A program made the translations under genes and the position numbers. The notes beneath the pieces were generated by a model. The model ran no database searches. It saw only the letters and a program-made list of their open reading frames with translations, and was not told the DNA's origin. Below, piece after piece: positions 721 through 56,231 of a stretch of DNA of 64,000 bases. This DNA comes from Pristiophorus japonicus (taxonomy: Eukaryota). Where the stretch lies: assembly GCF_044704955.1 (NCBI RefSeq), contig NC_091981.1, positions 177,940,001 through 178,004,000 on the forward strand, given 5' to 3'. Every line of letters begins with the position of its first letter. The first letter of the stretch is position 1.

Positions 721-929
721 GAGATGTTAAACGTTTTCCTAAACTTATGTTACATAACTAAAAATATGTTAACAGTGCAAAACCTTTTTGCTGTTTGCAT
801 TCATTTTGAATGTGCGACAAAATAATATTGGGCAAAAAAGATGAGGTCAACTGCACTAAGGTACAGTTTTACTCTTCTTTTCTGATGGCTGTTCGCTGAT
901 CAAACAGGACATTCGCCTATCTTGCTGCA

Positions 930-3680
930 CTCGTTCTTCTCACCGCACTCGCCCTACTTGCCCCTCTCACCCCGCTCACCCCACTCACCCCGTTTGGCCC
1001 CCCCCACCCCGCTGGCCCCTCACATCCCACTCACCCCTCACGCCCCACTCGTCCCCTCGCCCCGCTCACCCCTCCTGCCACACTCGCCCCGCTCATCCCT
1101 CTCACCCCTCCCGCTCCGTTCACCTCTCTGTCCCCTCCCGTCCCTCTTGCCTCTCCTGCCCACTCGCCCCTCTCTCTGCTCCTGCCCCGCTCCCGCCTAG
1201 TTCTCCCCTCCCACCCCGCTCTCTCCTCCTGCCCCGCTCGCCCCTCCCGCCCCGCTCGCCCCTCCCGCCCCGTTCTCCCCTCCCGCCCCGCTCGTCCCTC
1301 CTGCCCCGCTCGTCCCTCCTGCCCCGCTCGCCCCTCACACCCTGCTCGCCCCTCACACCCTGCTCACCCCTCACACCCTGCTCACCCCTCCCGCCCCGCT
1401 CGCCCCTCACACCCTGCTCGCCCCTCCCGCCCCGCTCGCCCCTCACACCCTGCTCGCCCCTCCCGCCCCGCTCGCCCCTCACACCCTGCTCGTCCCTCCC
1501 GCCCCGCTCGCCCCTCCCACCCTGCTCGTCCCTCCCGCCCCGCTCGTCCCTCCCGCCCTGCTCGCCCCTCACACCCTGCTCGCCCCTCACACCCTGCTCG
1601 CCCCTCACACCCTGCTCGCCCCTCCCGCCCTGCTCACCCTGCTCTCCCCTCCTGCCCCGCTCGCCCCTCCCGCCCCGCTCGCCTCTCCCACCCTGCTCTC
1701 CCCTCCCGCCCCGCTCGTCCCTCCCGCCCCGCTCTCCCCTCCCGCCCCGCTCGCCCCTCACACCCTGCTCGCCCCTCACACCCCGCTCGCCCCTCCCACC
1801 CTGCTCGTCCCTCCCGCCCCGCTCGTCCCTCCTGCCCCGCTCGTCCCTCCCGCCCTGCTCGCCCCTCACACCCTGCTCGCCCCTCACACCCTGCTCGCCC
1901 CTCCCGCCCTGCTCACCCTGCTCTCCCCTCCTGCCCCGCTCGCCCCTCCCGCCCCGCTCGCCCCTCACACCCCGCTCTCCCCTCCCGCCCCGCTCGTCCC
2001 TCCCGCCCCGCTCTCCCCTCCCGCCCCGCTCGCCCCTCACACCCTGCTCTCCCCTCCCGCCCCGCTCGTCCCTCCCGCCCCGCTCTCCCCTCCCGCCCCG
2101 CTCGCCCCTCACACCCTGCTCTCCCCTCCCGCCCCGCTCGTCCCTCCCGCCCTGCTCTCCCCTCCCGCCCCGCTCGTCCCTCCCGCCCCGCTCGCCCCTC
2201 ACACCCTGCTCGTCCCTCCCGCCCCGCTCGCCCCTCACACCCTGCTCGCCCCTCACACCCTGCTCGCCCCTCCCACCCTGCTCACCCCTCACACCCTGCT
2301 CGCCCCTCACACCCTGCTCGCCCCTCCCGCCCCGCTCACCCCTCACACCCTGCTCGCCCCTCACACCCTGCTCGCCCCTCACACCCTGCTCTCCCCTCCT
2401 GCCCCGCTCGTCCCTCCCGCCCTGCTCGTCCCTCCTGCCCCGCTCGCCCCTCACACCCTGCTCGCCCCTCACACCCTGCTCGCCCCTCCCACCCTGCTCA
2501 CCCCTCACACCCTGCTCGCCCCTCCCGCCCCTCACACCCTGCTCTCCCCTCCTGCCCCGCTCGTCCCTCCCGCCCTGCTCGTCCCTCCTGCCCCGCTCGC
2601 CCCTCACACCCTGCTCGCCCCTCACACCCTGCTCGTCCCTCCTGCCCCGCTCGCCCCTCACACCCTGCTCGCCCCTCACACCCCGCTCGTCCCTCCTGCC
2701 CCGCTCGCCCCTCACACCCTGCTCGTCCCTCCTGCCCCGCTCGTCCCTCCTGCCCCGCTCGTCCCTCCCGCCCTGCTCGCCCCTCACACCCCGCTCGCCC
2801 CTCCCGCCCTGCTCGCCCCTCACACCCCGCTCGCCCCTCCCGCCCCGCTCGCCCCTCACACCCCGCTCGCCCCTCACACCCCGCTCGTCCCTCCTGCCCC
2901 GCTCGCCCCTCACACCCTGCTCGTCCCTCCTGCCCCGCTCGCCCCTCACACCCTGCTCGCCCCTCACACCCCGCTCGTCCCTCCTGCCCCGCTCGCCCCT
3001 CACACCCCGCTCGTCCCTCCTGCCCCGTTCGTCCCTCCCGCCCCGCTCGCCCCTCACACCCTGCTCGCCCCTCCCGCCCTGCTCACCCTGCTCTCCCCTC
3101 CTGCCCCACTCGTCCCTCCCGCCCCGCTCGCCCTGCTCTCCCCTCCTGCCCCGCTCGCCCCTCCCGCTCCGCTCGTCCCTCCCGCCCCGCTCGCCCCTCA
3201 CACCCTGCTCTCCCCTCACACCCTGCTCACCCCTCACACCCTGCTCACCCCTCACACCCTGCTCGCCCCTCACACCCTGCTCACCCCTCACACCCTGCTC
3301 GCCCCTCACACCCTGCTCGCCCCTCACACCCTGCTCGCCCCTCACACCCTGCTCGCCCCTCACGCCGCTCTCGCCCTCACGCCCCACTCGCCCCGCTCAC
3401 CCCTCCTGCCCCACTCGCCCCGCTCATCCCTCTCACCCCTCCCACCCCGTTCACCTCTCTGTCCCCTCCCGTCCCTCTTGTCTCTCCTGCCCCGCTCGCC
3501 CCTCTCTCTGCTCCTGCCCCACTCCCGCCTAGTTCTCCCCTCCCGCCCCGCTCTCTCCTCCTGCCCCGCTCACCCCGCTCGCCCCTCTCTCCCTGTTCAC
3601 CCCTCCTGTCCCGTTCCCTCCTCCCACCCCGCTTGCCCCTCTCACCCCGCCTGCCCCTCCTGCCCTCCTGCCCCTCTCGA
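930..3680. repeat. C-rich minisatellite, 9-bp monomers in 18-bp pairs (e.g. CCCTGCTCG CCCCTCACA)
   Basis: Directly visible tandem array; a block of about 190 bp (1040-1240) recurs at 3380-3570. Confidence 0.95.
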
Positions 3681-4027
3681 TTTAATGGAGGAGAGAGATA
3701 GAGAGGTGAGGGAGGGAACTCCAGAGCTTTAGGGGTGGACTTTGGGCTTTTAGTATTTTGAGGCGTTAATCGCAGCGGGGCGTTAAAATTAGCGCCTGAG
3801 AATAGTTTGTGCCTTTGACTTCAAGTTTCGGCGAAAATGTAAGTTGGAGGAGCGTTGGTGTTAAGTCAGGTGTTGCACAACGGACTTTGTGCTCCTGAGC
3901 CGAAGCTTGCAGTATTAAAGGAGGCGGCCATTTTGCGCATGTGCATTGAAAAAAAAATTTTTCTTGGCACGACAGCTTCCTGCGCGCATGCGCATATAAA
4001 CCGCTCCACTTCAGCAACTTCCGCCAA

Positions 4028-30910: not shown

Positions 30911-31011
30911 TAAAAGTCAGATAGCCAGATGTTGAAGCAAGAATACTACAGCCTAGACTTTAGTCGCTTGCACCTTTTATGCTGAATTCGGTGATTGACG
31001 GCTGGGGCCAT

Positions 31012-32912
31012 CACCAATAAAAAACAAAGCAAGTGCCCCCTTTTAACAGGGCACAACCAATAAACTGCAAATTAAACAGAATTGAAATACTTAAACCAAA
31101 ATCTGAATTTTGTTTCTGGGGGTGATGAAGCACTCCAGCCAATCCGGTCGCGAAAGGCCTCAAGCATACTGGCATGCTCCATCTCCAAGGACACCTGGGC
31201 GCACACAGAACCGTGGAAGAGAGGCAGGCTGTTAGGCCGAATGACCCCCTCGACCTCCTGCTGCCTGGACCTGTTAATGGCCATCTTGGCCAGGCCCAGG
31301 AGCAGTCCAACAAGGAGGTTCTCCGAATTGCCCGCTCCCCTCCGCTTCAGGTGCCCAAGGATCAGGAGCGTGGGACTGAAGTGCAACCAAACAGAGGAGC
31401 AGCCCCTTCAAAAACTGGATGAGTGGCTGCAACTTCTCACACTCTGTTGTGTATATATGGAATACAGACTCCTTCAAGCCGCAGAAATTGTCTGTTGCCT
31501 GCGAGTCTGTAAACCTACTTAAAAATTTGTTGCACTGGACAGCTCCATGCAATGCCCCCCGGCCAGGTCTCCAATAGAAAAAGGGGAGGCCGCCTGCATA
31601 GAGAGCCCTCCACTGAGGACCCCCATCTCCTCCGGATCATGGACTTGGGCACGGGATCGTTTGCGGGCACAGGTTCGCGAATGAGCGCAGGTATGGGACC
31701 TCCAGGGGACTCGCCCCGAGGTGTTTCGTTTTCCTCCACACCTTCCTTCCATGTGGACGCCCTTCCACCCTTCCTGTCGAGGCCGCCATGACAGTGGCCT
31801 CCGACGTCGACCACGTATTTGGTGTTGCTGGCGCGGGGACAGGGGCAGTGGCAGTGCCAGCCTTGGCTGTCTTAGTTGTTTTGGCAGCCTTGCAGTTTTT
31901 ACTTACATGTCCCATCTTCTGCACATCATCCGACGTCCAGAAGACACGGTAGGGAGACCTCTGGTGGTTAACTCCATGTCCTCCTCCCTCACCAGCTGAA
32001 GATAAAGATGTCACCAGAAGGAGAAGACGTGACGAAGGCTGGCCCCCCTGAAGCTGAGCGGGCTCACCTCCCCGACCTCACCTCCAGTTGACGTAGGTGG
32101 GTGAGGAGGAGTTCACTGGGGATAAAGGCAGGACATTTGATAAAATTATTCGCTGCGCGGTGACAGAGGATCCACCGGCAGTAAGGCCCTGCCCACTGTG
32201 AGCCTCAGACCTCAGGAAGAACACAGCTTTCCCATACATTTCCTAGGCGGCAACAATGGCTGAAGGGCCGACAACCCCATCCATGGCCTAACACACTCCT
32301 CAATGGTCATGTTGGGGCGAGTGTAGCTCTTCACCCCATGTTTTTTGGTGATAAGGGTGAAAGGTGACAGGGTAGCAGGAGTGGCTGCAGCTGCTATACC
32401 TGCGTATGTCCTTGCTTGCCCCATCACCGGTGAAGATGGAGTCGTTATTGCTGTTAATTAAGGGCTTCACTCACCCTACGTTTCAGGCTTGCGATGGATA
32501 TCTTAGGGGGATCAAGGGGTATGGCGAGAAAGCAGGAATGGGGTACGGAAGTTGCATGTTCAGCCATGAACTCATTGAATGGTGGTGCAGGCTAGAAGGG
32601 CCGAATGGCCTACTCCTGCACCTATTTTCTATGTTTCTATGTTTCTAAATATGACCTTTCCTTCAAACAGGGGAGTTTTAGAAAAAAAAAGGGAAAAAAA
32701 AAACACCTCCCCCTGTGGTGTCAGGATGGGAGAGGCATCTTCTCCCCTCTGATCAAAAAAGATAAAGGAGACAATAACAACAAAGAGAGAGGTTGCCTCA
32801 AGAGTCACAGAGGGAGAGAGAGAGGGAAGGAAGGAAGGCTGCAGAGGTGAGGTCACCATTCAAAACAGGGCTCAATGGGTGGGTGGGTGTACTGCAGGGG
32901 TGCAGTTTCTAG
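31012..32912 (-). mobile_element. Internally deleted Tx1-clade LINE (5'UTR, ORF1 pieces, ORF2 C-terminus); CR1 tail inserted at about 32500-32646
   Basis: ORF1 TYAGIAA..KKHGVKS and GHVSKNC; ORF2 HGAVQCNKFL..FCGLKESVFH, GLLLGLAKMAI. Confidence 0.82.
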
Positions 32913-32914
32913 CA

Positions 32915-34652
32915 CGAGATATAAAAACAGATAACATAAACTAGCACAAAATAAAAAAACAGATAGCAAGAGTTTCTAAGGTATATAAAAAGGAAAAGGA
33001 TGGCTAAAGTAAATGTTGGTCCCTTAGAGGACGAGACGGGGAATTAGTGATGCGGAACATGGAGATTGCAGAAACTCTGAACAGATCTTCAGTCTTTACA
33101 GTAGAGGACACTAAAAATATCCCAACAGTGAATAGTCAAGGGGCTATAGAGGGGGAGGAACTTAACACACTCACAATCACTAAGGAGGTGATACTCAGTA
33201 AGATAATGGGACTAAAGGCGGATAAATCCCCTGGACCTGATGGCTTGCATCCTAGGGTCTTAAGAGAAGTAGCGGCAGGGATAGTGGATGCATTGGTTGC
33301 AATTTACCAAAATTCTCTGGATTCTGGGGAGGTCCCAGCAGATTGGAAAACTGCAAATGTAACACCCCTATTTAAAAAAGGAGGCAGACAAAAAGCAGGA
33401 AACTATAAACCAGTTAGCCTAACATCTGTGGTTGGGAAAATATTATTAAAGAAGCAGTAGCAGGACATTTGGAAAAGCAAAATTCGGTCAGGCAGAGTCA
33501 GCATGGATTTATGAAGGGGAAGTCATGTTTGACAAATGTGCTGGAGTTCTTTGAGGATGTAACGAACAGGGTGGATAAAGGGGAACTAGTGGATGTGGTG
33601 TATTTGGACTTCACGAAGGCATTTGACAAGGTGCCACATAAAAGGTTACTGCACAAGATAAAAGTTCACGGGGTTGGGGGTAATATATTAACATGGACCG
33701 AGTGTAACGTAGCCAAGTTTGCTGATGATACAAAGATGGGAGGAAAAGCAATGTGTGAGGAGGACACAAAAACCTGCAAAAGGACATAAACAGGCTGAGT
33801 GGGCAAAAATTTGGCAGATGGAGTATAATGTTGGAAAGTGTGAGACTTTGGCAGAAAACAAATCGAAGAGCAAGTTATTATTTAAATGGAGAAAAAGTAC
33901 AAAGTGCTGCAGTACAGCAGGATCTGGGGGTCCTGGTGCATGAAACACAAAAGGTTAGTATGCAGGTACAGCAAGTGATCAGGAAGGCCAATGGAATCTT
34001 GGCCTTTATTGTAAAGGGGATGGATTATAAAAGCAGGGAGGTCTTGCTACAGTTATACAGGGTACTGGTGAGGTCACACCTGGAATACTGCGTAGTCTTG
34101 TTTTCCATATTTACGAAAGGATATTCTTGCTTTGGAAGCAGTTCAGAGAAGGTTCACTTGGTTGATTCCGGAGATGAGGGGGTTGACTTATGAGGAAAGG
34201 TTGAGTAGGTTGGGCCTCTACTCATTGGAATTCAGTAGAATGAGAGGTGATCTTATCAAAACGTAAAAGATTATGAGGGGGCTTGACAAGGTTGATGCAG
34301 AGAGGATGTCTCCACTGATAGGGGAGACTAGAACTAGTGGGTATAATCTTAGAATAAGGGACTGCCCATTTAAAACTGAGATGAGGAGGAATTTCTTCTC
34401 TCAGAGGGTTGTAAATCCGTGGAATTTGCTGCCTCAGAGAGCTGTGGAAGCTGGGACATGGAATAAATTTAAGGCAGAGATAGACAGTTTCTTAGCCGAT
34501 AAGGGAATAAGGGGTTATGGGGAGCGGGCAGGGAAGTGGACCTGAGTCCATGATCAGATCAGCCATGATCGTATTAAATGGTATAGCAGGCTTGAGGGAC
34601 CAAATGGCCTACTCCTGCTCCTATTTCTTATGTTCTTATATTCTTATGTTCT
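32915..34652 (+). mobile_element. CR1 ORF2 fragment with internal deletion
   Basis: KSPGPDGLHP, QHGFMKGKSC, FADDTK; (TTCTTATG)n tail. Confidence 0.92.
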
Positions 34653-34889
34653 AGTTGTTAAATATCAATCTTTAAGATCTTCCTGGTTGAGGGTAGGCAA
34701 TGTCTTCACCCAGGCTACTCCAACTGTCCCGGTCCAGTCAAGAGGGAGGGGTGTTTATAAGTGTGCGCGGCCTAGTTGATTTTGAAAGAGCACACACACC
34801 TCTCACAATCTTTCAGCCTTTATCTTTTTTCCTCCCCCCACCTACAGATAATAATCTTGAAGAGAAAGTGCACCAGCACCCAACTATGC

Positions 34890-34961
34890 AAAGAACTCAC
34901 TTCAGGAGTGGAAGCAAGTCTTCCTCGATTCCGAGGGACTGCCTACGATGATGGTGATGAT
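34890..34961 (+). mobile_element. RTE 3' tail fragment
   Basis: Matches 24620-24686. Confidence 0.75.
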
Positions 34962-35620
34962 ATGTTGATCTATGGTTGGTATTAATCTTCCTCCTTCCAA
35001 GTTGATGATATTTTCTTCCAGTTGTAGAAGTTGTAGTTGTGGTTCTTCCTCTCCCATTACAGAGAGCCAACAAGCAAGCAAACAACTCTTTTTAGGAGAC
35101 AAAATAAACCGTAAATCAAGTGCCCCCCGATCTGGGGGACACTTCAAACATTTTTCCAGGCCCTTTTTTTGTTTTTTTTTGTATTTTTTGTAGGTTTTTT
35201 TTTGAGGTTCCAGGGTTTGGTGCCGATGAGGAATTCCGTCCGGACGGGGGTCAGTTCGGACGGGATCTCCCCACGTGCTTGAGCCTCCTCGACACACCTA
35301 ACGGAGTCAGGGCCCAGAGCTGTTTTTAGCGACTCGATGGCATTGGCCGCGCGGCGGACGTCGGCCGAATTTAGGCGCCATCCAGACTGCTCCTCCCCCA
35401 TCGAGCAGGTCCCTGACCCTGGTCACCTCGCCAGCCACAGCCCTCTCGTCCGCCTGCCACCTAAAACCTCGGTCGTGGAGGTACGGATTCCTGAGCAGCG
35501 GCTCCTGCAGGACAGCCGCCACTCCAGCCGATGGAGAGCTGCGCTTGGTGGAGACTTTGTTCCAGACCCTGGTGAGTTCCTTGTAAAAGAAACAAGGACG
35601 GCGGTCCTGATGCAAAATTC

Positions 35621-35692
35621 AGCTTTTACCAAGATTTGAAATCATATCGCTGGATTCAAAGTCCAGAGTGCTCACCATTACACCATTGAACC
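35621..35692 (-). tRNA. tRNA-Gln(TTG) pseudogene, copy A
   Basis: GGTTCAATGGTGTAATGGTGAGCACTCTGGACTTTGAATCCAGCGAT..; B-box, T-arm and acceptor stem mutated. Confidence 0.85.
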
Positions 35693-36194
35693 AATACAAG
35701 CAAGCAAACAACTCTTTCCATTGGAAACAAAATTAACCAATTAAGTTAAGTGCCCCCCAATCTGGGGGACACTCCAAACATATTTCAAGGCCCTTTTTTT
35801 TGGTTGTTTTTTTTTGTATTTTTTGTAGGTTTTTTTTGGTTTTTTTGGGCACTAAAATCATAATTTTTACAAGTGCCCCCTATAAAAGGGAAGGGGGATA
35901 CTAAAACCAGCAATTAAAACAAATTAAACTTTAAAACATATAAAATCAAATTAAAATTTGGTTGCTGGGGGTGATAATGCACTCCAGTCCCTCCGGCGCC
36001 CACCTGTCGCGGAAGGCCGCGAGCGTACCGGTGGACACCGTGTGCTGCATCTCTAGGGACACCCTGGCCCGGATGTAAGCACGGAAGAGAGGCTGGCAGT
36101 CAGGCTGAACGACCCCCTCGACTTTGTTCCAGACCCTGGTGAGTTCCTTGTAAAAGACAGGCAGCTCCCGGAGGCCGGTCATGACACAAAATTC

Positions 36195-36266
36195 AGCTTT
36201 TACCAAGATTTGAAATCATATCGCTGGATTCAAAGTCCAGAGTGCTCACCATTACACCATTGAAAC
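36195..36266 (-). tRNA. tRNA-Gln(TTG) pseudogene, copy B
   Basis: Near-identical to copy A. Confidence 0.85.
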
Positions 36267-37250
36267 AACACAAGCAAGCAAACAACTCTTTTGGGGGGGA
36301 ACAAAATAAACATTAGATCAAGTGCCCCCCCGATCTGGGGGACACTCCAGACACTTTTAACTGCCCTCTTTTTTCATGTTTTTTGGGGGTTTTTTTGGTT
36401 TTTAAAAAAAAAAATTTTGGGGGGAATTAAAATTATATATTTTACAAGTGCCCCCTATAAAAGGGAAGGGGGACACTAAAACCGGCATTTAAAATAAATG
36501 AGACTTTAAAACAAATAAAATCAAATTAAAATTTGGTTGCCGGGGGTGATGATGCACTCCAGTCCCTCCGGTGCCCACCTCTCGCGGAAGGCCGCGAGCG
36601 TACCGGTGGACACCGCGTGCTCCATCTCCAGGGACACCCTGGCCCGGATGTAGGCGTGGAAGAGAGGCAGGCAGTCAGGCTGAACGAACCCCTCGACCGC
36701 CCGCTGCCTGGACCGGCTGATGGCACCCTTGGCCGTGCCCAGGAGCAGTCCTACGAGGAGGCCCTCGGACCTACCCGCTCCCCTCCGCACAGATCAGGAG
36801 TGTGGGACTGAAGTGCAGCCAGAAATTGAGGAGCAGCCCCTTTAAATAATGGAACAGGGGCTGCAACCTCGCACACTCCATAAAAACATGGAACACGGAC
36901 TCTTCCAGACCGCAGAAATTGCAGGCGGCCTGGGAGCCTGTGAACCGACTTAAAAATTTATTGCACGGGACTGCTCTGTGCACCATCTCCAGGTCAAGTC
37001 CCTGATGAATAGTGGGAGGACTCCTGCGTAGAGTGCCCTCCATCGGGGACCCCCGCCTCCTCCGGACGGCAAGATGGTACGCCATGGCGTGTCCGGACGG
37101 CAGACGAGGATGGCAAAGTTGAGAGTGTGCAGGAGCAACCCGTACAGGAAACCCCTCCACGCAGAACTGAAAGGTATGGAGGGGATTTCCCCGAGGCGGC
37201 TCAAGTTGTGAGGCAGGCAGCCCCTGGACGGCGGTCCTGACACAAAATTC

Positions 37251-37322
37251 AGCTTTTACCAAGATTTGAAATCATATCGCTGGATTCAAAGTCCAGAGTA
37301 CTCACCATTACACCATTGAACC
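37251..37322 (-). tRNA. tRNA-Gln(TTG) pseudogene, copy C
   Basis: Near-identical to copy A. Confidence 0.85.
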
Positions 37323-37942
37323 AACACAAGCAAGCAAACAAGCCACTTAATACCCACCACCTGAACACAATTAACACCCAACTGAATACAATTAACAAAC
37401 TGTCCTCATAATTTAACATTTTTAGCATATAAATTACACAAGTTATACATAACCTCTAAACAAACATACCTGATATTTGCAGTTCTCAGAAACCATCAGC
37501 TCATCTTCAATTTTTCTCTCCCACAAAAATCTTCCAATTTCCCATTCTTCGATGCTCAGCTCAGGTACAAAAATCACTAGGTTGCCGGGAGGCTTTTTCA
37601 TGGACACTTGTCAGTGCAGTTGATGGATTCATGCGTGCAACTGTTCATGCTTTAAGCTGCCAGTTAGCTTTTCACCCCATCACCAGTATTTCTGAATATC
37701 AGTTAGCTTTTTCACTGGGATTGGGGATTATCAATATGAACCAGTAAATACATTTATTAAATATGGAGGCCTCACTGCATTTTATTTCAAACCTTTATGG
37801 TGGAGAACAGAGCTCTTGGCCCTGATATTAATGGGGAGGCGGGGTTGGTGTGGGTGAGGCCAAAATCAGCCAAAGAACCTGGCAAAGCAGAGGATGTGGA
37901 GCCCCTGCCGATCTTAATGGTAGGGCCTCATTAACATATTAT

Positions 37943-38581
37943 GGGCCCGAAATTGGGGAACTTACCATTCGCTGCCACCAAGTTTTCTCGGCGGTCTCCC
38001 TGGTTTCTGGGTGGTCTCCCCTTCGAGTGAGTTTGGTGGAGGCCTCCCACCGGCAGGGAGAGAAAACCGCTGGGTACCATCCGCTGGCGTGCTCCGGTGT
38101 GCAACGCCCAGGAGAGTCCTCCCGCCCACTGAGCTGCCAGTTTGGTCCGAGCGGTCCTCCACTGCAGCAGGAGAAAAGGCCGCCGTGTGGAGGCAGGTCT
38201 ATCCTCAACGGTAAGATTGAAAACTTGCAAAAAAAGTTTAGTCCACTTCTTTTCTTTATTTTTTTTCCAGGGATTCAGGTGGATGGGGTCCCTTGAAGGA
38301 TTTTGTTTTGTTTTATGTTTAGAAATTTTTAATCTCATCAGTTTCCCCCCTCCCTGGGCCCGACTCAATCCTCGGCAGTACTTTGCCGAGGATTGCATTT
38401 GCTGCCGAGAATGGGAGCTACCGCCTGCTGCCGCCCAGAATCGGCGCATAAGTCCCATTTTTGCCGCCGGGCGGTCTTTCCCAGATTTTTCCCTGAAACT
38501 CCTGCCCAAAGTACCGTCAGGATCTCAGCAGTCCTTTGGATGGTACTTGGGCGGAACTTAGCTTCCACCAATTTCGGGCCC
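37943..38581. mobile_element. Harbinger-type MITE
   Basis: 14-bp TIR GGGCCCGAAATTGG; TSD imperfect (tat/ttt); appears to sit inside an older repeat starting near 37818. Confidence 0.8.
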
Positions 38582-45489: not shown

Positions 45490-46782
45490 CTACTTCTTAA
45501 GGTGCAGAAGTGGGTGGCGAAAGCTCCCTTCCACATTCCTTATTCCGGGGTTAGTCGTTATTGTCATACGCATAGCCAAACATCTAATCAAAGCAAACAA
45601 ACAGTATAATGCTACTATTACAGCAAATACAAATATAATTCCTTGTATCAATGAGCTGCCCACGGAGCCTAGCCATCCTGTGGCCCAGCCCCACAGTGTG
45701 GTAGCTGAGGGTTGTTTCAGCTGTTCTATTTCCTTTTAAATGTGGTCTGCTAGCTTGGTGATATCCTCGTAACTATCCGGGATTTACGTGCAACATTCGG
45801 TGCCGATCAGGGCACATGTCCCCCCCCTCCCCCTCTCCACCAGGATAAAGTCAAAGGCCATTCGGTTTTGTAAGGCCACTGTGCGAATGGCCACCATTTC
45901 GGCGTTTATTTTAAGTAGGGCTCCCGCAGTGTCATTAGCCACCTTTTCACCTTTTCCAGGACGGATGCCATGTTAATGGACTCCCTTGCTAATTTACCAG
46001 TTCCAAGGAACCAGAAAGGCGAAGAACCTTTCAGTCTCCGTAATCGCCCGTTTACTCTTTTGTGGAGAAAACAACCCTGGAAGGGAAGTGAAGTGGCGAA
46101 TGTAGGGTATCACATAACCTAAATAACAAGATCCTGTCCAGTTCTGTGGCAGCCAAGAATAAGCCCTGTGGCCGCAAATAAAGTAGGTACCGTTGTATGG
46201 GGAATATCGGCCACTTCCTATCACTACCCATCCTTGTGTAAAGTTCTGGCCCGGGGTGGTCTTATTCGGGAAATGCAGGAAGCTCTGCATGCTTCCTTTC
46301 GTCACATTCACATTTTGCCTACACGTACTATTCCCCATTCCCTGCCCTCCGGTTTGGTTTCTGATCAGACATACCGACCCTTGTGGCCTTCCTATCCCTG
46401 AGGTATTAGTGAGGACCAAGAACGGGGGCTTTAGGGTCTGGTTATAATTGGGCTGATACCACTCCAAAAAGGTGTTTAACCCATAACCCGCCGACCGCCA
46501 TTCGGCCTGTGGTAATTCTACATCTTCCCCCAGACTATTGGTCCTATTCCCGTTTGTACGGTTCTGGTTAAAAAACCATTCCGCCATCTCAGATTCATTG
46601 AGGGGTACTGGTCTCAAAGGGATTCCTCCCTTTGAATGGATCGGTACCTGTGCACATACCCAACAACTGGAGATGTTGGCTTCCTTAGCATAGCTATATG
46701 ACATGTACATAAAAGTATTTACATGTAGCTCCATGTTACACAGGGGTCGGGTCAGACCCATGAGTACAATCAGTCCAAACAT
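45490..46782 (-). pseudogene. env: ERV envelope, gamma-type, disrupted in TM
   Basis: Hydrophobic N-terminus, CWVC, KSKR furin site, ISD-like LQNRMAFD, CALIGTECC (CX6CC), TM anchor; 8-bp duplication and stops. Confidence 0.9.
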
Positions 46783-46809
46783 TTTGTTGAGTTCAAAAGT
46801 TCAGTTCTT

Positions 46810-49800
46810 TTAGTCTGTTTCCGATACAGGTGCCCGTTTAACGTGCGAGGCGTGGATCCAAGCCTTCTTCCCTTGAATTTTAACCGCTGATCGGGTCGTC
46901 AGTAATACTTGGTACGGTCCTTCCCACTTGGCTCCCAGCGGTTCTTTGTGTATTTTCTTTACGTATACCCAAACTCCTCGGACAATATCGTGTCCTCCCT
47001 CCGGGGGTTCCCCCCAAGTTGCTTTGACCTATTGGGAAGCAGAACTGATAGCATTTGTTAAATTCTGGCAATATTCCAACAATGTGTCACTCATCAGGTG
47101 ACAGTCTGCTTTTCGCAGATCGATGGTCCCCGGGAGAGACATTGGTCTTCCGGTGATCACCTCAAAAGGGCTTAAGCCCGTTGTTCGGTTTGGGGTGGCC
47201 CTGATATTACACAAGACCATTGGGAGTGCTTGAGGCCACGGGATCCCCTCTTGGTGGTACTTGGCTAGTCGTTGTTTCAAAGTTCGATTCATACGCTGCA
47301 CTTGGCCTAATGACTGTGGGTGATCAGGGCAATGTAGATTCCAGGTGATGCTGAGCAATCTGCAGACCTCTCGGCACACGGCTCCAGTAAAATGGGTCCC
47401 TGATCAGAGTCAATACTTGCGGGGACTCCCCATCTAGGTATATAGTCTTTACACAGCACCTTAGCCGTGTGCACAGCGGTGCTCCTTCGGGTGGGTACGG
47501 CTTCCACCCACCTAGAGAATCGATCCATAATCATAAAGACGTCCGAATATCCCTGACATGGGGGCAATGAGATGTAATCTACTTGTAAATCTCGGAAAGG
47601 CCCTGCCGGGGCCGGAGAAGGGGCATTGTAGTGGAGGGTCCGGTGTTATTTTTCTGGCAAGTGACGCACCTGTCCACCGTGGCTTGAGCGTGTTTCCTAA
47701 AACCCCAGCCCCACCAGCTTTTCTGGAACTGAGCCGTCATTTGTTGGGGGGCTAAGTGCCCCCAGGAATGTATTTGATGGACCAAAAAGGGCATTAGCAC
47801 TTGTGGTGCCACTGGTTTTCCTGTCTCGGGCTGCCTCCACATTCCATCCGCCCATAGCTTTATCCCTTCACTTATCCATTCCCATTTTTCCGTCTGGAGA
47901 CATTCCTCCTGCATTTTTGCCAGATCCTGTGTCAGCGTTCGGGTCCCCAGTTGACATACAAGGATGCCCTTCTCTGGTTCCATTAAGGCGGCTTCCTTAG
48001 CTGCCTGGTCAGCCTGTGCGTTTCCTTTAGTCTCATCTGTATTCTCCTTCATATGGGCCTTGCATTTCAGGGTAGATACCTCCTCTGGCAACAATAATGC
48101 TTCAAGTAGGTCGTGGACTTCCGCCCCATTCCGTATTGGGGTTCCCACTGCAGTCAAGAATCCTCTCTTCCGCCATAACTGGCCGGAAATCATGTGCCAC
48201 CTCAAAAGCGTATTTGGAATCTGTGTATATATTAGTTGTTTGTTCCTCGGCTACCCTGCAGGCTTCGGCCAGCACTCTCAATTTGGCCTGCTGAGCGGAG
48301 ATTCCGGCAGGGAGCACCCCCTTCCTTACTACCTCGTGCAGCGTCGTGACTGCCCAGCCCGCCTTCCATGCTACACAGACGAGGATCCGTCCGTAAATAG
48401 GATCAAGTCCAGATTGGGTAACGGCTCTTCGGCTGTCGCAGCGGTTCCTTCTGCTTCTTCTAACATGCCCGCACAGTCGTGCTGGTCTTCATACCCTTCT
48501 TCAGGCAGGGGAAGCATGGTGGCCGGATTAACCGGGCTAGCTCATACAATTTGCAGGTTTAGAGCTTCCAGGACTGTTGTCCATCTGGCTGAGGTCATCT
48601 GGGTGACCCGGTTCATGGCTAGCATAGCATGTACTGTATGGGGACACTTGATGATCAGTTTCTGGTCTAAGGCTAATCCCGCCGTTACCATTACTGCTCG
48701 GCATAGCCCTCAGGCAACTTCCCCATCCGAGAACCACTGTGTCCAGTTTGGCAGAGTAGTATCCGATGGGCCTCTGTTGGTCAGGAAAGCAGTCATGTAT
48801 CTTCTTTCTCATGCACAAATAGGATGAAGGGCTTCCTGGTGTCTGGGATCCCTAGGGCGGGTGCCGTGCACAGGGCCTGTTTCAGTTTTTCAAACGCCTC
48901 CTTTTGCTCCTCAGCCAGGGTGATAGCTTCTTTTGAGGTCCGTTTTCCTTTTAGCAGGTCATTCAATGGTTGTAGCAAGTGTGTAGGAGTCCACCCAGTT
49001 CCTATTAAAATTGCACAGACCCAAGGAGGATCGAAGTTCCTGGATCGTGGCGGGCTGTTTAGCCGTGCTAATAGCCTCGGTCCTATCCTGGGTCAGTTCC
49101 CGCTCTCCCATTGAGATCTTTTGTCCTAGGTAAATCACTTCTTCCTGGGTGATCTGGGCCTTGGCCATACTGGCCTTGTATCCCTTTTCGACGAGGTCAG
49201 CACGTCTTGTTCATGCTGTTCTTCCGTGGTGGACGCCAGTAGGCTATCATCGACATATTGTATCACCGTATATCCCATCGGGGGTAGCTCCCTTAAGTGA
49301 CTCTGCAGGGCCATGTGGAACAGTGTTGGGCTGTTGTGGAACCCTTGAGGTAGACGGGTCCAGGTGTATTGCTGTCCCTGGATGGTAAAGGCAAACCACG
49401 GCTGCACCTCCAGGGCCAGCGGAATTGCCCAGAATCCATTGGCCATATCAATAACGGTGAAGAACTTGTCTTCCGGCGTCAGAGCCTGAAATATAGTGGA
49501 GGGGTCTATTGTGTTCCGAACACAGATGAGGCTGCACACAGGGAGGTTAAAGTAACAGTGACCTCAGTCTTTAATAAGACACTCCAGAGTGAGGAACAGG
49601 CCTTAGGGGCCGGCTTATATACAGTGCTCCCAAGGGATGCTGGGATCCCTTGGGACTTCAGGGGATGAGCTCCCTGGTAGCGGAACATGGGAGTGCATGC
49701 TTTACAGATACACAACATCACTCCCCCTCAAAGTCAAAGTGAAAACTATTTACAAGGTGAGGCGGTCGGGAGCCTTTCTTTCCCTGGTGGACCGCCTTGG

Positions 49801-52800
49801 TACAAATGTCTGTTCTGGTGTGTTGGCTGTGCCCTCGCTGGGCTGGCATGTTGTTGGCCCTGCAGTGCTGCTGGGTGAGCCTGACCTTGTTGGGCTGTTG
49901 GGCGTGATGGGTTTGATTTCCTGGTCCGGTGTGGTGGCATTGATCCTTTGGGTGTGTGTTGTGGGCTCGAAAAAGGTGGTGTCTGCTGTGGATTGTTCAG
50001 GACAGTCTGTGAACCGCAGCCTCGTTTGGTCCAGGTGCTTTCTGCAAATTTGTCCATTGTCTAGTTTGACTACAAACACCCTACTCCCTTCTTTAGCTAT
50101 CACAGTGCCCGCGATCCACTTGGGACCATCTCCATAGTTTAGCACATACACAGGGTCATTCAGATCAATTTCCCGTGACACAATGGCGTGACCATCGTTT
50201 ACATTTTGTTGCTGCCGCCTGCTCCCTACCTGATCATGCAGGTTGGGGTGAACCAGCGAGAGTCTGGTTTTAAGTGTCCTTTTCATGAGTAGCTCAGCTG
50301 GGCGCACCCCTGTGAGCGAGTGGGGTCTCGTGCGGTAGCTGAGCAGTACTCGGGACAGGCGGGTTTGGAGTGAGCCTTCTGTGACTCGTTTAAGGCTCTG
50401 TTTGATGGTTTGTACTGCCCGCTCTGCCTGTCCATTGGAGGCTGGTTCAAACGGGGCTGAGGTGACATGTTTGATCCCATTGCAGGTCATGAATTCTTTA
50501 AATTCGGCATTGGTGAAACATGGCCCGTTGTCACTGACCAGTATGTCAGGTAGACCGTGGGTGGCAAATATGGCCCTCAGGCCATGGTGGTGGTGGCGGT
50601 GCTTCCCAACATTATTTCACATTCAATCCATTTTGAAAAAGCATCCACCACCACCAGGAACATTTTACCGAGAAACGGGCCCGCATAGTCGACATGGATC
50701 CTCGACCATGGTCTGGAGGGCTAGGACCACAAACTTAGTGGTGCCTCTCTGGGCGCGTTGCTCAGCTGAGCACATACGCTGCATTGCCGTACACAGGACT
50801 CTAAGTCAGAATCGATACAAGGGCCACCATATGTGGAATCTGGCTATCGCTTTCATCATTACTATACCTGGGTGTGTGCTGTGGAGATCCGAGATGAACG
50901 TCTCCCTGCCCTTTTTGGGTAGCACTACGCGGTTACCCCACAACAGGCAGCCTGCCTGAATGGACAGCTCATCCTTTCGCCGCTGGAACGGCTTGATTGG
51001 CTCTTGCATTTCAACGGGGATGCTGGCCCAGCTCCCATGCAGTACACAGTTTTTTATTAGGGACAGCAGAGGATCTTGGCTGGTCCAAGTCCTAATCTGG
51101 CGGGCCGTGACAGGTGATTTATAATTTTCAAACGCTTCCATGATCATCAATAAGTCTGCGGGCTGTGCCACCATCAACAAGTTTGCAGCCTGCGCTATTT
51201 CCACCCCCGTGGTGGGCAATGGTAGCCGACTGAGAGCATCCGCACAGTTCTCGGTGCCTGGCCTGTGGCGGATGGTATAGTTATACGCTGATAGCGCAAG
51301 TGCCCACCTTTGTATGCGGGCTGAGGCATTAGTATTTATCCCCTTGTTTTCAGCGAACAGGGATGTGAGTGGCTTGTGATCGGTTTCCAGCTCAAATTTG
51401 AGGCCAAACAAGTACTGATGCATTTTCTTTACCCCGAACACACAAGCTAATGCCTCTTTCTCAATCATGCTGTAGGCCCTCTCGGCCTTAGACAAGCCGC
51501 TGGAAGCATAGGCGACAGGTTGCAACTTCCCCGCAACGTTAGTTTGTTGTAATATACACCCGACTCCGTACGACGACGCATCACATGCTAGCACAAGTCT
51601 TTTACACGGGTTATACAATACAAGCAGCTTGTTGGAGCATAAAATGTTTCTGGCTTTTTCAAAAGCAATTACTTGCTTTTTTCCTCATACCCAGTTCTCA
51701 CCTTTGCGCAATAACACATGTAGGGGCTCTAAAAGGTTGCTTAACCCCGGTAGGAAGTTACCAAAATAGTTGAGGAGTCCCAGGAACGACCGCAGCTCCA
51801 TAACGTTTTGTGGCCTGGGCACGTTCCTGATAGCCTCTGTCTTGGCATCTGTGGGCCGAATGCCGTCCGTCGCGATCTTTCTCCCCAAAAACTCCACTTC
51901 TGTTGCCATGAAGACGCAATTCAACCTCTTCAGCCGCAGCCCTACGTGATCCAGTCGCTGGAGAACCTCCTCCAGGTTTTGTAGGTACTCGACGGTGTCC
52001 CGACCAGTGACCAATATGTCGTCCTGAAAGACCACCGTGTGTGGTACCGACTTGAGTAGGCTCTCAATGTTTCTCTGGAAGATCGCTGCAGCTGACCGAA
52101 TTCCAAACGGGCATCTGTTGTAGATGAACAGTCCCTTGTACGTGTTGATGCAGGTGAGGCCCTTCAAGGACTCCTCCAGCTCCTGCGTCATGTAGGCCGA
52201 AGTCAGGTCGAGCTTGGTGAACATCTTGCCTCCTGCCAGCGTCGCAAATAGGTCGTCTTCCTTAGGTAGCGGGTATTGGTCCTGTAGTGAGAAACGATTA
52301 ATAGTTACTTTATAATTGCCGCAAATCCTGACCGTGCCATCACTTTTGAGTACTGGAACAATCGGGCTGGCTGGCCTACTCGCTGAATTCCACTGGGGAG
52401 ATGATGCCCTCACGTTGCAGCCTGTCCAGCTCGATTTCAACTCTCTCCCTCATCATGTGAGGTACCGCTCGCGCCTTGTGGTGAATGGGTCGTGCCTCTG
52501 GGACCAAGTGGATCCGCACCTTCACCCCGGAAAAGTTTCCAATGCCTGGCTCAAAAAGGGAAGGAAATTTGTTAAGAACTTGAGTACATGAGGCCTCATC
52601 GACATGTGATAGCGCTCGGATGTCATCCCAGTTCCAGCAGATTTTGCCCAGCCAGCTCCTTCCAAGCCCGGGACAATCCAGAGTGGCAATTTGTGCACCG
52701 TGCCCTCGTAGGTGACCTTGACAATGGCGCTGCCCAGGACAGTGATAAGCTCTTTGGTGTACGTTCTCAGTTTCATGTGGATGGAGCTCAGGGCTGGTCT

Positions 52801-54735
52801 GAATGCCTTGTTGCATCACAGTCTCTCAAACATCTTTTTACTCATGATGGATTGGCTAGCGCCAGTGTCCAGTTCCATGGCTACGGGTAAGCCATTCAAT
52901 TTTATGTTTAGCATTATAGCTGGAAATTTCATTGAAAATCTGTGCACCCCCGTGTACTTCAGCATCTTCCTCCTCTCTCTGAGGCTCGAAATTGCTTTGA
53001 TCCACCATGGACCGATCTTCCTCTGCCACGTGGTGGTTAGCAGGTTTTGCAGAGCTTACAGCTCATTTGCAAGCTCGTTGGAGGTGCCCCATTGTTTCAA
53101 AGCTCTTGCAAACATACCGTTTGAAGCGGCGTGAATAGGCTGAATGGAAGCCTCCATGACGCCAACAAGGTGTGAATTGCCTTACACTCATCCTTTGTTG
53201 GGGACTCTGAGTCATCTGGGTCACCTGAGGCCTGCTGGCAGTTGCAGACTCGTGGGTTCTGCCCTGTGCATTTCTGCTCGCAAACACAGTTCCAGTTAAT
53301 TTATGAACATTGCTAGCACTTGTGTGCTGAGAGATTTGTTTGGTGTTATCACTGGTGGACATAAACGCCTGTGCTATCGCAATGGCCTTACTGAGGGGCG
53401 GTGTCTCTAAATTCAAAAGTTTTCGTAGGATGCTCTCGTGGCCAGTACAAAAGTATTTGCTCCAGGTAGCCATCAAACTCACATTGTCCTGCAAGTCGCC
53501 TTAGCTCGGCGACTTAGCTCGCCACTTCCTGACCTTCAGATCGCTGGCACGTGTAGAACCGATACCTCGCCCTCCCTTGGGTTAAGATGCTCCCGAACCA
53601 GTGTACACAGCTCCTCATATGACTTATATGTGGGTTTCACCGGAGCCAGAAGATTCTTCATGAGGCTGTAGGTCGGTGCCCCGCAGACTGTGAGGAGGAC
53701 CGCTCTCCTTTTTGCAGCGCTTCCTTCTCCGTCCAGCTCGTTGGCTAAAAAGTACTGGTCTAGCCGTTCGACATAGGCTTCCCAGTCCTCACTCTCCGAG
53801 AATTTCTCCAGGATGCCCACAGTTTGCTGCATCTTTGCATTGGATTCTTATTCTCGTCGCCAGTTATTGTGTTCCTAACACTGATGAGGCTGCATATAGG
53901 GAGATTAAAGTAACAGTGACCTCAGTCTTTAATAAGACACTCCAGAGTGAGGAACAGGCCTTAGGGTCCAGCTTATATACAGTGCTCCCTGGTGGCGGAA
54001 CATGGGAGTGCATGCTTTACAGATGCACAACCGGGTCCGCTACCAACGGGGCTTTTTGGTCAATGCACTGGTTGGCCTTCCGATAGTCCACCTCATGCGC
54101 CAGGCATCTTTACCCTTATGCACTGACCATACGGGATTATTGGATGAGCTGTGGGTCTTAACTAGTACCCCTTGTTCTCTTAACTGCCGGATGATGGGTA
54201 ATATTCCTTGGATTGATGTCGGGCTGATCGGGTACTGTTTGGTGCAAGGAGGTGGAGTCCCGGTGAAGGTAACCAGGTCCATTTTAAGCAAGCCACAGTC
54301 ATGTTTGTCATTGGCCCATATCAGGTGGTCCCTTAGCTCTTCCCTCTGCAGGGATCGGATCGACCATGTGACTTGGCCGTCCTCAAAGTCCAGGGAGGAG
54401 TCTATTTTCGTCAAGACGTCCATCCCGAGTAGGGGTTGTCCCACCGGTCCCACCCGGACCGATACCGTTACTTCATGTGGTCCCAGAACCAAACACATCG
54501 GCTGGGTTCGGTGGAGTATCAGCTTATGGCCTCCGACTCCATGTGCTGCACGGGTTGTCCCGTCGAGGGGGAATTTATAATTTTCGGGCACGCACGTCAA
54601 TTCTGCCCCTGTGTCCAATAAACAATCAGTCTCTTGGTCGCCCACTCCCATACTGACATATAGTCCGTCCCTGCACTGATGTATTAATGCTAACAGGTAT
54701 CCTGCCGGGGAGGGGGTGGGCTCTACGAGTTTTTT
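46810..54735 (-). pseudogene. pol: ERV pro-pol, interrupted by Gypsy 2
   Basis: LLDTGA, LPQGFHNSP, QYVDD, FTDGS, YTDSKY, HSWGH..CVTC, DSDQG, WEGPY. Confidence 0.92.
49507..54032 (-). mobile_element. Gypsy (Mag-like) LTR retrotransposon 2; LTRs 49507-49717 and 53865-54032
   Basis: Exact TSD GGGTC, PBS TGGCGACGAG, PPT; LDTGAS, FQDD, CDAS, HSTHPG, SNGQAER; removing it restores ERV KAPLVADPSTIF. Confidence 0.95.
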
Positions 54736-56231
54736 GCACATTCCAGCAACTGCAGCTGCTGATCGAGGGAAAGTTCTTTAAACCGCTCCATCACTGACCG
54801 CCCATCGGCCTGTTTCTGGCCCGTCCCCGAGCTTCCCTGGTTGTTCTGTTCCTTCGCTCGGCACGATCGGGCCCAATGTCCCTCTTTACCGCAATAGTGG
54901 CACTTTCCTGGCAGTCTTCCGGACGTCTGCCCCTCCCGGTTCTTTGGTTTCCATCCAGTCTGCATTACTCGGACCTTTGAAGTTAAATCCCGATCTAACT
55001 GGCTACACAGGTCTACAAACTGCGCGAAGGAGGTTCCCTGATCATCCCAATCTGCCAGGGTCGCCTTCACTAATTTAAATAGTTTTGGTTTCAACCCCGC
55101 CATAAAGGTAGCCTTCAAGGGTCCAACTCTTTTGTCATCCATCTGCTCCGCATCTTGATGCAGACCCCGAATGTTCCAGCCACGTAGACTTGAATCGCTC
55201 CTCATACTCGAGTCCCTCCTCTGTGCCTTTTTGCTGGCACACTGCAATCTTACTCCAATCCATCCTTGTCGGCCCATACTTTCTTAACTACCCTTTCACT
55301 TCTCCCCTGCGTCAATCCCCTGTCCAGTGTCTCCAAGTGCCTCTTTTACTGCCCTCTGGAGCTTACGTGCCGATCGTCCCGGCACCATGACGATCAGAAT
55401 CTGGACTCCGTCCAAAGGATGGAGTGTGTAAATACTTCGCAGTCAATCTCATTGTTCCCAAGTTCTCACCCCCCACCTTTTTCGGGTGTTGGAGTTCTTT
55501 CGACGATTTATCTATTTTTTCGGGTTCCGTGGCTACGTGAACCATCATATTCTCGTATCTTTGTTTACGTTTCTTAGTTCCGCCTTCCGTCTTAGTCGTC
55601 GTCTCTACTTTAACTCTCGTTGTTTTTAGTGGGGCTAATATAGGACTAATATCGCTGCCGTCCGAGTCTTCGTCGGATGACGAGGAGCCTGAATCCGACG
55701 TCACTGATCCCGCCAGTTGCCTTTCCAGCTGTCGGTGTTCTTTCCCTAATTGTGACAGACTTGGATAGACGGCTTTATACTCCAGACGCACCCCTGCGTA
55801 CTGGCTGCGACCAAATCTTTCATCTCACCCTTCAGTTATCCCTTTCTTCCCTATTTCTGAATTTTTCTTGGTCACTTGTTCCCCAAGTGCCTTGATTTGA
55901 TGTTTAGCAGCTTTCAGATCCTGATCGAATTGGGACTGGGTCATGATTTCTTTTCTCTGTCGAACTTGGCTCATGACGGCCAGGGACCAGCAGGTCCTTT
56001 CTTTATCTTTCATGCGCGTGGTTTTCCCCCATACCCTTTTTATATCGTCCAGGGTACACTGACCCTTAGAGGTTCCATACTTTTGTTCAATTTCGGCACA
56101 TTCTTTCGTAAATCAAACCGCTGTTCGATGTATTCCCAAAGGCTTTCTAACACTTCCTCGTCCGTGACCTCTGGTGGGGCCAGGCCTCCTTTTTCAGTCG
56201 TGGGATGGTTTTTGTTTCCGCCTTCAGCCAT
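54723..56231 (-). pseudogene. gag: ERV gag (frameshifted)
   Basis: Lies after the leader; C-terminal CHYCGKEGHWARSC zinc knuckle. Confidence 0.85.

Follow-up and report, generated by a model that had tools for sequence, protein, structure and literature searches.

Many SINEs are proposed to have arisen when template switching fused a tRNA head to a LINE tail. Founder-stage chimeras in which the tRNA is whole and precursor-like have, to our knowledge, seldom been described. The closest described systems include the following two. In U6/L1 chimeras, U6 ending in 4–6 T is joined in sense to a variably truncated L1 (PMC6789731), and the same composition of a whole Pol III transcript with its T run, a truncated LINE and a short target-site duplication (TSD) has been reported for L2, RTE and lizard L1 (PMC6789731; PMC4476161). 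In crocodilians, small-RNA heads are found on Tx1 families, and tandems of SINEU-3 sandwich a TSD (PMC4494074). LINE inserts may also carry extra 5′ bases taken from their flanks and have TSDs of over 20 bp (PMC4245944), and long TSDs for LINE inserts are cited second-hand via PMC2912911. In the literature searched, no shark Tx1 with a tRNA head is described, though one may be listed in Repbase or Dfam or appear in subscription journals or supplements.

The window analysed here is the whole 64,000-nucleotide stretch of Pristiophorus japonicus DNA. It contains an array that reads, in minus-strand order, flank, 15-mer, unit 1 (37326–36286), 15-mer, unit 2 (36270–35712), 15-mer, unit 3 (35696–35086), 15-mer, flank. 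The 15-mer, TTGTTTGCTTGCTTG, occurs four times in the 64 kb, every time inside the array, and the base that follows it (T) is also common to the copies, extending the repeat to 16 bp. The features are as follows.

37361..37472, no strand assigned: stretch of the 5′ flank, itself repeated elsewhere (depth 1,000–2,650; another locus has a LINE 5′ junction at 37362)
37327..37341, minus strand: TSD copy 1 (15 bp, 16 with the next T), the original target, with non-LINE flank before it
37244..37326, minus strand: head of unit 1, with a 4-nt leader, a 72-nt degenerate tRNA-Gln(TTG) at 37251–37322 and a 7-nt trailer ending TTTT (Rfam match; other-locus joints break at 37244)
37216..37243, minus strand: 5′ LINE piece of unit 1, about 28 nt of post-RT ORF2
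36286..37215, minus strand: 3′ LINE piece of unit 1, about 930 nt, with a frameshifted ORF2 end, a weak zf-RVT match, a stop at 36521 and a 3′ UTR with a terminal hairpin
36271..36285, minus strand: TSD copy 2
36188..36270, minus strand: head of unit 2 (Rfam tRNA match)
36120..36187, minus strand: 5′ LINE piece of unit 2, 68 nt, with a 3-nt microhomology (GTC) at the junction
35712..36119, minus strand: 3′ LINE piece of unit 2, 408 nt, ORF2 end and 3′ UTR
35697..35711, minus strand: TSD copy 3
35614..35696, minus strand: head of unit 3 (Rfam tRNA match)
35204..35613, minus strand: 5′ LINE piece of unit 3, 410 nt, with homologs among whale-shark LINE ORF2 fragments
35086..35203, minus strand: 3′ LINE piece of unit 3, 118 nt, end of the 3′ UTR only
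35071..35085, minus strand: TSD copy 4, followed by flank with no tRNA

Each insert consists of an 83-nt head and a LINE 3′ fragment and is bounded by ordinary short TSDs. Because n insertions need n + 1 target copies and the 15-mer alone has four, the 15-mer is the TSD and the head is part of the inserts; the tRNA has three copies, and the fourth 15-mer leads into flank without one, a point that the initial annotation had passed over. That annotation, made from the sequence, had proposed, as one of two options, a TSD of about 100 bp that copies the tRNA. This fails on the same count of four 15-mers, three tRNAs and none after the last 3′ end, although the serial site-specific insertion to which it belonged is supported. 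That all LINE 3′ ends abut one motif was correctly noted, the motif being TTGTTTGCTTGCTTG, which adjoins each of them. The near-identical tRNA-Gln pseudogene units stand as three heads, but the ‘19-bp leader’ assigned to them resolves into the 15-bp TSD and a 4-nt leader, while of the ‘12-bp trailer’ most likely 7 nt, ending TTTT, are trailer and the other 5 nt are LINE.

The head runs from the 4-nt leader through a 72-nt tRNA-like body with anticodon TTG to the 7-nt trailer ending TTTT, and has no CCA. The three heads score 35.1, 31.3 and 26.1 bits against Rfam RF00005, two of them above the gathering score of 29, and the Rfam scan of 34500–38000 gave tRNA matches and no U1 or U2. ARAGORN found no tRNA genes. 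The acceptor stem is broken in all heads (4/7 pairs form in units 1 and 3, 5/7 in unit 2) and the heads fold no better than shuffled sequences (z −0.58 to 1.03). Presumably, about eight changes relative to canonical vertebrate tRNA-Gln are shared by all three. T4 lies at unit positions 80–83 in every head, with further T4 runs behind it.

The bases directly after TTTT are GTGTC, GTGTC and GCATC. Taken as LINE codons they would be compatible with G-V, given CpG decay on either strand. In whale-shark homologs the sequence is G-L-x-x-[AT]-L-R-M-L-P-x-[FI]-Y, the leading G being present in two of the four rows that hold the motif, and unit 2 translates there as C-V-M-T-G-L-R-E-L-P-V-F-Y. Since these 5 nt fit LINE codons, the head–LINE junction probably lies immediately behind the T run, at the base used by two joints from other loci described below. 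An in-frame likeness of the head end to ORF2 residues (QIL against QLL) was dismissed as chance. The exact pattern of the head junction was absent from the metagenome and viral contigs scanned.

Behind the head, the units continue in ORF2 for 28, 68 and 410 nt and then jump to 3′ pieces of about 930, 408 and 118 nt (units 1, 2 and 3, respectively). Three LINE 3′ fragments with unlike 3′ ends and unlike internal gaps, all beginning at one ORF2 position, had been reported initially; the minus-strand analysis confirms this for all three units, and neither a deletion nor a 3′ end is common to two of them. The 5′ pieces are nested, shrinking from 410 to 68 to 28 nt from unit 3 to unit 1 (chance 1 in 6), and the microhomologies at the junctions, 1–3 nt, are close to chance. 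What is left of ORF2 is the post-RT region, with no RT in any unit, and the zf-RVT profile matches under its cutoff (E 0.0018; 19.4 bits against 27.5). Among proteins, the fragments are closest to whale-shark gene models (7 of the 8 looked up). These models have sub-cutoff RVT_1 matches, and the ORF2 remains are 60% identical to one whale-shark model over 70 residues. phmmer returned 19 relatives, at least one of them spurious (P0012), word-indexed protein searches gave 0 matches among 242, 20 and 59 candidates, and the exact pattern of the ORF2 end was absent from the metagenome, viral and prokaryote contigs scanned. The label Tx1, first given to this LINE in the initial annotation, is plausible.

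All three 3′ ends contain a GC-rich hairpin of 11–12 bp about 35–60 nt before the end (36286–36370 and the equivalents in units 2 and 3; z −1.2 to −2.5), which may serve the LINE protein as a recognition signal. A further element of this LINE group, more diverged, lies at 30950–32900 on the minus strand, its 5′ region and ORF1-like start (ORF1 identity is weak) joined at about 31636 to an ORF2 end. It is an internally deleted copy, 73.6% identical to unit 1 over 552 nt, and has no tRNA head by BLAST against the three heads.

The heads differ at 2/83 positions in every pair, with one private change per unit, whereas the last ~80 nt differ at 17/81, 13/79 and 11/79 (14–21%), mostly outside CpG; at non-CpG sites of the 3′ ends, 11–18% differ. 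The divergence of 3′ ends exceeds that of heads in each comparison (Fisher p 1.6e-4, 2.3e-3 and 8.4e-3). Near-identical heads with 3′ ends so far apart mean that the 3′ ends come from different sources. Simple tandem duplication, named beforehand as the refuting alternative, is accordingly rejected.

On the 5′ side of the array, directly 5′ of the target, the repeat at 37361–37472 is AT-rich and has splice-like ends (GTATGT to TTCAG). By analogy with Mariner-N4 for Tx1-Mar, it is a possible preferred target. Two frames of the 5′ flank gave no usable Atlas match. In the 3′ flank, 35047–35070 (minus strand), directly behind the last TSD, is similar to the beginning of the head, sharing TTGG and TGTAATGG; 73 of 5000 shuffles scored as well, uncorrected. 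Further away, reading of translations suggests broken retrovirus-like frames at 45994–54777 on the minus strand (env-like at 45994–46800, RNase H/integrase-like at 47579–48250 and protease-like at 54040–54777), interrupted by gypsy-like pol frames at 49750–52449. A GC-rich, short-period minisatellite of about 2.8 kb with open frames on both strands occupies 860–3732.

Public contigs were compared over 36241–37900, comprising unit 1, the 5′ flank and 30 nt of the unit 2 head; 4 of 13 runs, all of them contigs, were used, at 82% likeness. The joints listed (15 of 107 and 12 of 71) all have support in run X1, probably the source sample. In X1 the single-copy flank has a depth of 14–15 and the LINE body, in bins 36409 to 37192, a depth of 0.4–2.8 million, which is summed over contigs and is not a copy number. 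Over the head, runs X8 and X9 are uncovered, a gap that proves nothing. An assembly artefact is unlikely, given the many substitutions between units and a 217-nt contig from the probable source sample that matches the flank–TSD–head junction with 0 differences. This contig stops at 37297, 27 nt earlier than the stop at 37270 that the window alone predicts, and a common 30-mer that starts at the head's first base falls at its end, which hints at a head of the unit 1 type with another 5′ neighbour elsewhere.

Two of the 12 of 71 joints listed connect the LINE, at 36610 and at 36330 (in the latter case through nine letters that prolong the LINE match), to the final T of the trailer at 37244. Both have a depth of 15.6, about single-copy; the sides of two joints are short (23 and 27 nt). 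At these TTTT–LINE loci the head may have been co-inserted, or it may have been the target. A joint of 36267 to 37242, at a depth of 21.4, reads as a head T run joined to the first bases of a head. Four more of the same 12 listed run from the LINE 3′ end through TTGT and 8–12 further letters into the next truncated LINE. With spacers of 12–16 nt, the size of the array TSD, they are other tandems of the same LINE. Bearing on a possible target preference of the LINE, TTGT follows its 3′ end in the array and in these four listed joints, and another locus of the 5′-flank repeat also has a LINE junction.

The reading that we favour, with about even confidence, is that a tRNA-like Pol III transcript, still unprocessed, formed a chimera of the U6/L1 type and that its site was then targeted again, new cDNAs being completed on the 5′ end of the resident chimera. 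The LINE would belong to one abundant, Tx1-like shark family. This reading is favoured by (i) the four 15-mers for three heads, (ii) the joining of TTTT elsewhere to two other LINE truncation points, (iii) the TSD-spaced tandems, (iv) the near-identity of the heads against the divergence of the last ~80 nt and (v) the nested 5′ pieces, at 1 in 6 by chance. In the founder, a tRNA-Gln-derived Pol III transcript, unprocessed from leader to TTTT and without CCA, would have been joined to a 5′-truncated LINE by template jump or RNA ligation, as in U6/L1 chimeras. A founder with a reused 5′ end is needed because independent captures would not repeat one junction three times. LINE RNAs with the different 3′ ends seen here would then have re-targeted the same TTGT-starting site, each event leaving a TSD of the 15–16 bp now present. 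In the weakest step, a truncated cDNA would jump at short microhomology onto the resident chimera, either onto its DNA, which amounts to a 126- or 166-bp duplication, or onto read-through RNA. This single step would give every unit the common head and junction together with its own ‘internal deletion’ and 3′ end. A long duplication of these variable lengths that copied the earlier chimera, not a tRNA gene, remains one route to the common 5′ ends; re-targeting with completion on the resident chimera is, we infer, the most economical.

Several observations weigh against this explanation. No unit is intact as a founder, since unit 3 too has a gap and its own 3′ end, and the signal of separate 3′ sources is confined to the last ~80 nt. 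In the first 30 LINE nt, units 1 and 2 differ at 5/30, above the heads (p 0.014), and units 1 and 3 agree against unit 2, contrary to a simple copying order from unit 3 through unit 2 to unit 1. The contig stop at 37297, with its hint of a unit 1-type head elsewhere, counts against the explanation as well, as do the origin of the head joints in one run and microhomologies so close to chance. The array is probably dead sequence, with no expected function and no host function implied.

A somewhat unlikely alternative is a low-copy nascent SINE-like element. Here a single master with a tRNA head and a fixed LINE junction would be transcribed through TTTT, gain its varying 3′ ends and deletions through template jumps, and insert into a preferred target one copy after another. 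The fixed junction and the star-like private head changes would suit such a master, copies elsewhere are suggested by the head-to-head joint and by the contig that breaks where the head begins, and SINEU-3 provides a precedent (PMC4494074). However, at position 37275 a letter other than that of the array, read as ordinary tRNA-Gln genes, makes up 2161.2 of 2191.8 depth in X1 and 9.49 of 9.49 in X5, and if diverged copies existed in the hundreds, many contigs should carry the array letter. The array allele thus accounts for at most 30.6 of the 2191.8 in X1. This bound is soft, because the local heads alone predict about six copy-equivalents, or about 87 depth, in a k=31 graph of the window, so contigs are missing; it leaves the alternative some room. 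The rarity of the head allele speaks against copies in the hundreds but would allow a handful, and a proliferated SINE is unlikely. Also opposed to a SINE are the TTTT directly behind the tRNA, a Pol III terminator (4–5 T; PMC4476161), the different junctions used by the other-locus joints among those listed and the lack of any deletion or 3′ end common to two units. The SINE-like option of the initial annotation therefore holds for the unit, which is tRNA-headed and LINE-tailed, but the contigs give no support to a dispersed SINE, the head allele being scarce there and its TTTT continuing into other truncation points.

A bolder proposition, which we regard as unlikely, is that the array shows a SINE at birth. 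A defective tRNA-Gln copy would give an unprocessed, U-tailed Pol III RNA that is repeatedly captured by a shark Tx1-like LINE, as L1 captures U6; one chimera would become a reusable 5′ module, swapped onto the 3′ ends of different LINE subfamilies at site-specific re-insertion, and heads would seed chimeras elsewhere.

We consider it quite unlikely that one chimeric insertion was triplicated by unequal exchange between TSDs, followed by different internal losses and the overwriting of 3′ ends by gene conversion from the very many other LINE copies. The ORF2 ends of units 1 and 2, which differ at 12/175 (6.9%; 4.0% without CpG), are compatible with the divergence of the heads (2.4%), the difference being not significant (p 0.24). 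Units 2 and 3 share exactly a 38-nt ORF2 stretch together with an A-rich linker. In family coordinates, moreover, the 5′ piece of unit 3 ends (35204) about 14 nt before the 3′ piece of unit 1 begins (37214), as if one element had been cut, judging by a loose end in run X8, from another organism; this near-adjacency may be chance or the trace of one broken element. Triplication would require two duplications, three deletions and at least two conversions, though, and has to accommodate both the 11–18% difference at non-CpG sites of the 3′ ends and a LINE family that forms TSD-spaced tandems by insertion elsewhere (four joints among those listed).

Targeting of a tRNA-Gln locus by the LINE, with each insertion duplicating 103 bp that include the tRNA, would accord with the frequent target specificity of Tx1-clade elements (PMC4494074), with Dewa, which targets tRNA-Leu spacers (PMC3706591), and with the weak resemblance of the 3′ flank to the head start, but it is highly improbable given that no tRNA lies past the last 3′ end, that other tandems of the family have 12–16-nt spacers and that the two other loci joining the head TTTT to other LINE positions make a fixed microhomology unneeded.

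For the favoured chimera reading, the wider interest lies in two points. If the other TTTT–LINE loci are co-insertions, they would form a countable set of founders and a test of why most fail, namely the internal terminator. The array itself may also preserve a trace of how a LINE returning to its target finishes its 5′ end on the copy already there.

The array has a tRNA-derived 5′ head and a LINE-derived 3′ tail with a short TSD, which are features of SINE2 elements, but a Pol III terminator (T4) lies between head and tail. As to SINE2 copy number, the array-letter bound at 37275 (at most 30.6 of 2191.8 depth, with contigs missing) speaks against a large family, though a handful of dispersed copies may exist. 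Human tRNA/LINE-1 chimeras likewise combine a tRNA and a LINE 3′ part in one TSD-flanked insertion; the 21 loci are mostly antisense tRNA halves, however, whereas the array heads are full-length and in sense with precursor-like ends (bioRxiv 10.1101/2025.02.02.635956). The jumps of R2 to tRNA and U12, and the SIDEs, are further cases in which a site-specific non-LTR element has a tRNA at its 5′ junction, and they include internally deleted derivatives, but the R2 case used a mature tRNA ending in CCA (PMC3414825), while the array lacks CCA and has its junction after a terminator-like T run.

Two further comparisons return to the systems with which we began. Like SINEU and Tx1-Mar, the array, if its LINE is a Tx1, shows small-RNA heads on Tx1-mobilized elements, repeated head addition, TSD-sandwiching tandems and insertion into another repeat (PMC4494074). 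Its head allele is rare and tRNA-derived and its bodies differ per unit, unlike the SINEUs, which have 137–7,700 copies and U1/U2 heads (PMC4494074). As in U6/L1 chimeras, a full-length small RNA up to its T run is joined in sense to a truncated LINE within one TSD. Those chimeras combine a fixed RNA end with variable LINE truncation; the array junction is fixed, and the two short-sided X1 joints at 37244 use other LINE points. The array further differs from them in its degenerate tRNA head with leader and trailer, its three tandem units with one junction and its cartilaginous-fish host. It represents a local and unusual form of the known chimeras between small RNAs and retrotransposons, not a new mobile family, and by analogy appears to work like a U6/L1 chimera and to insert like SINEU-3.
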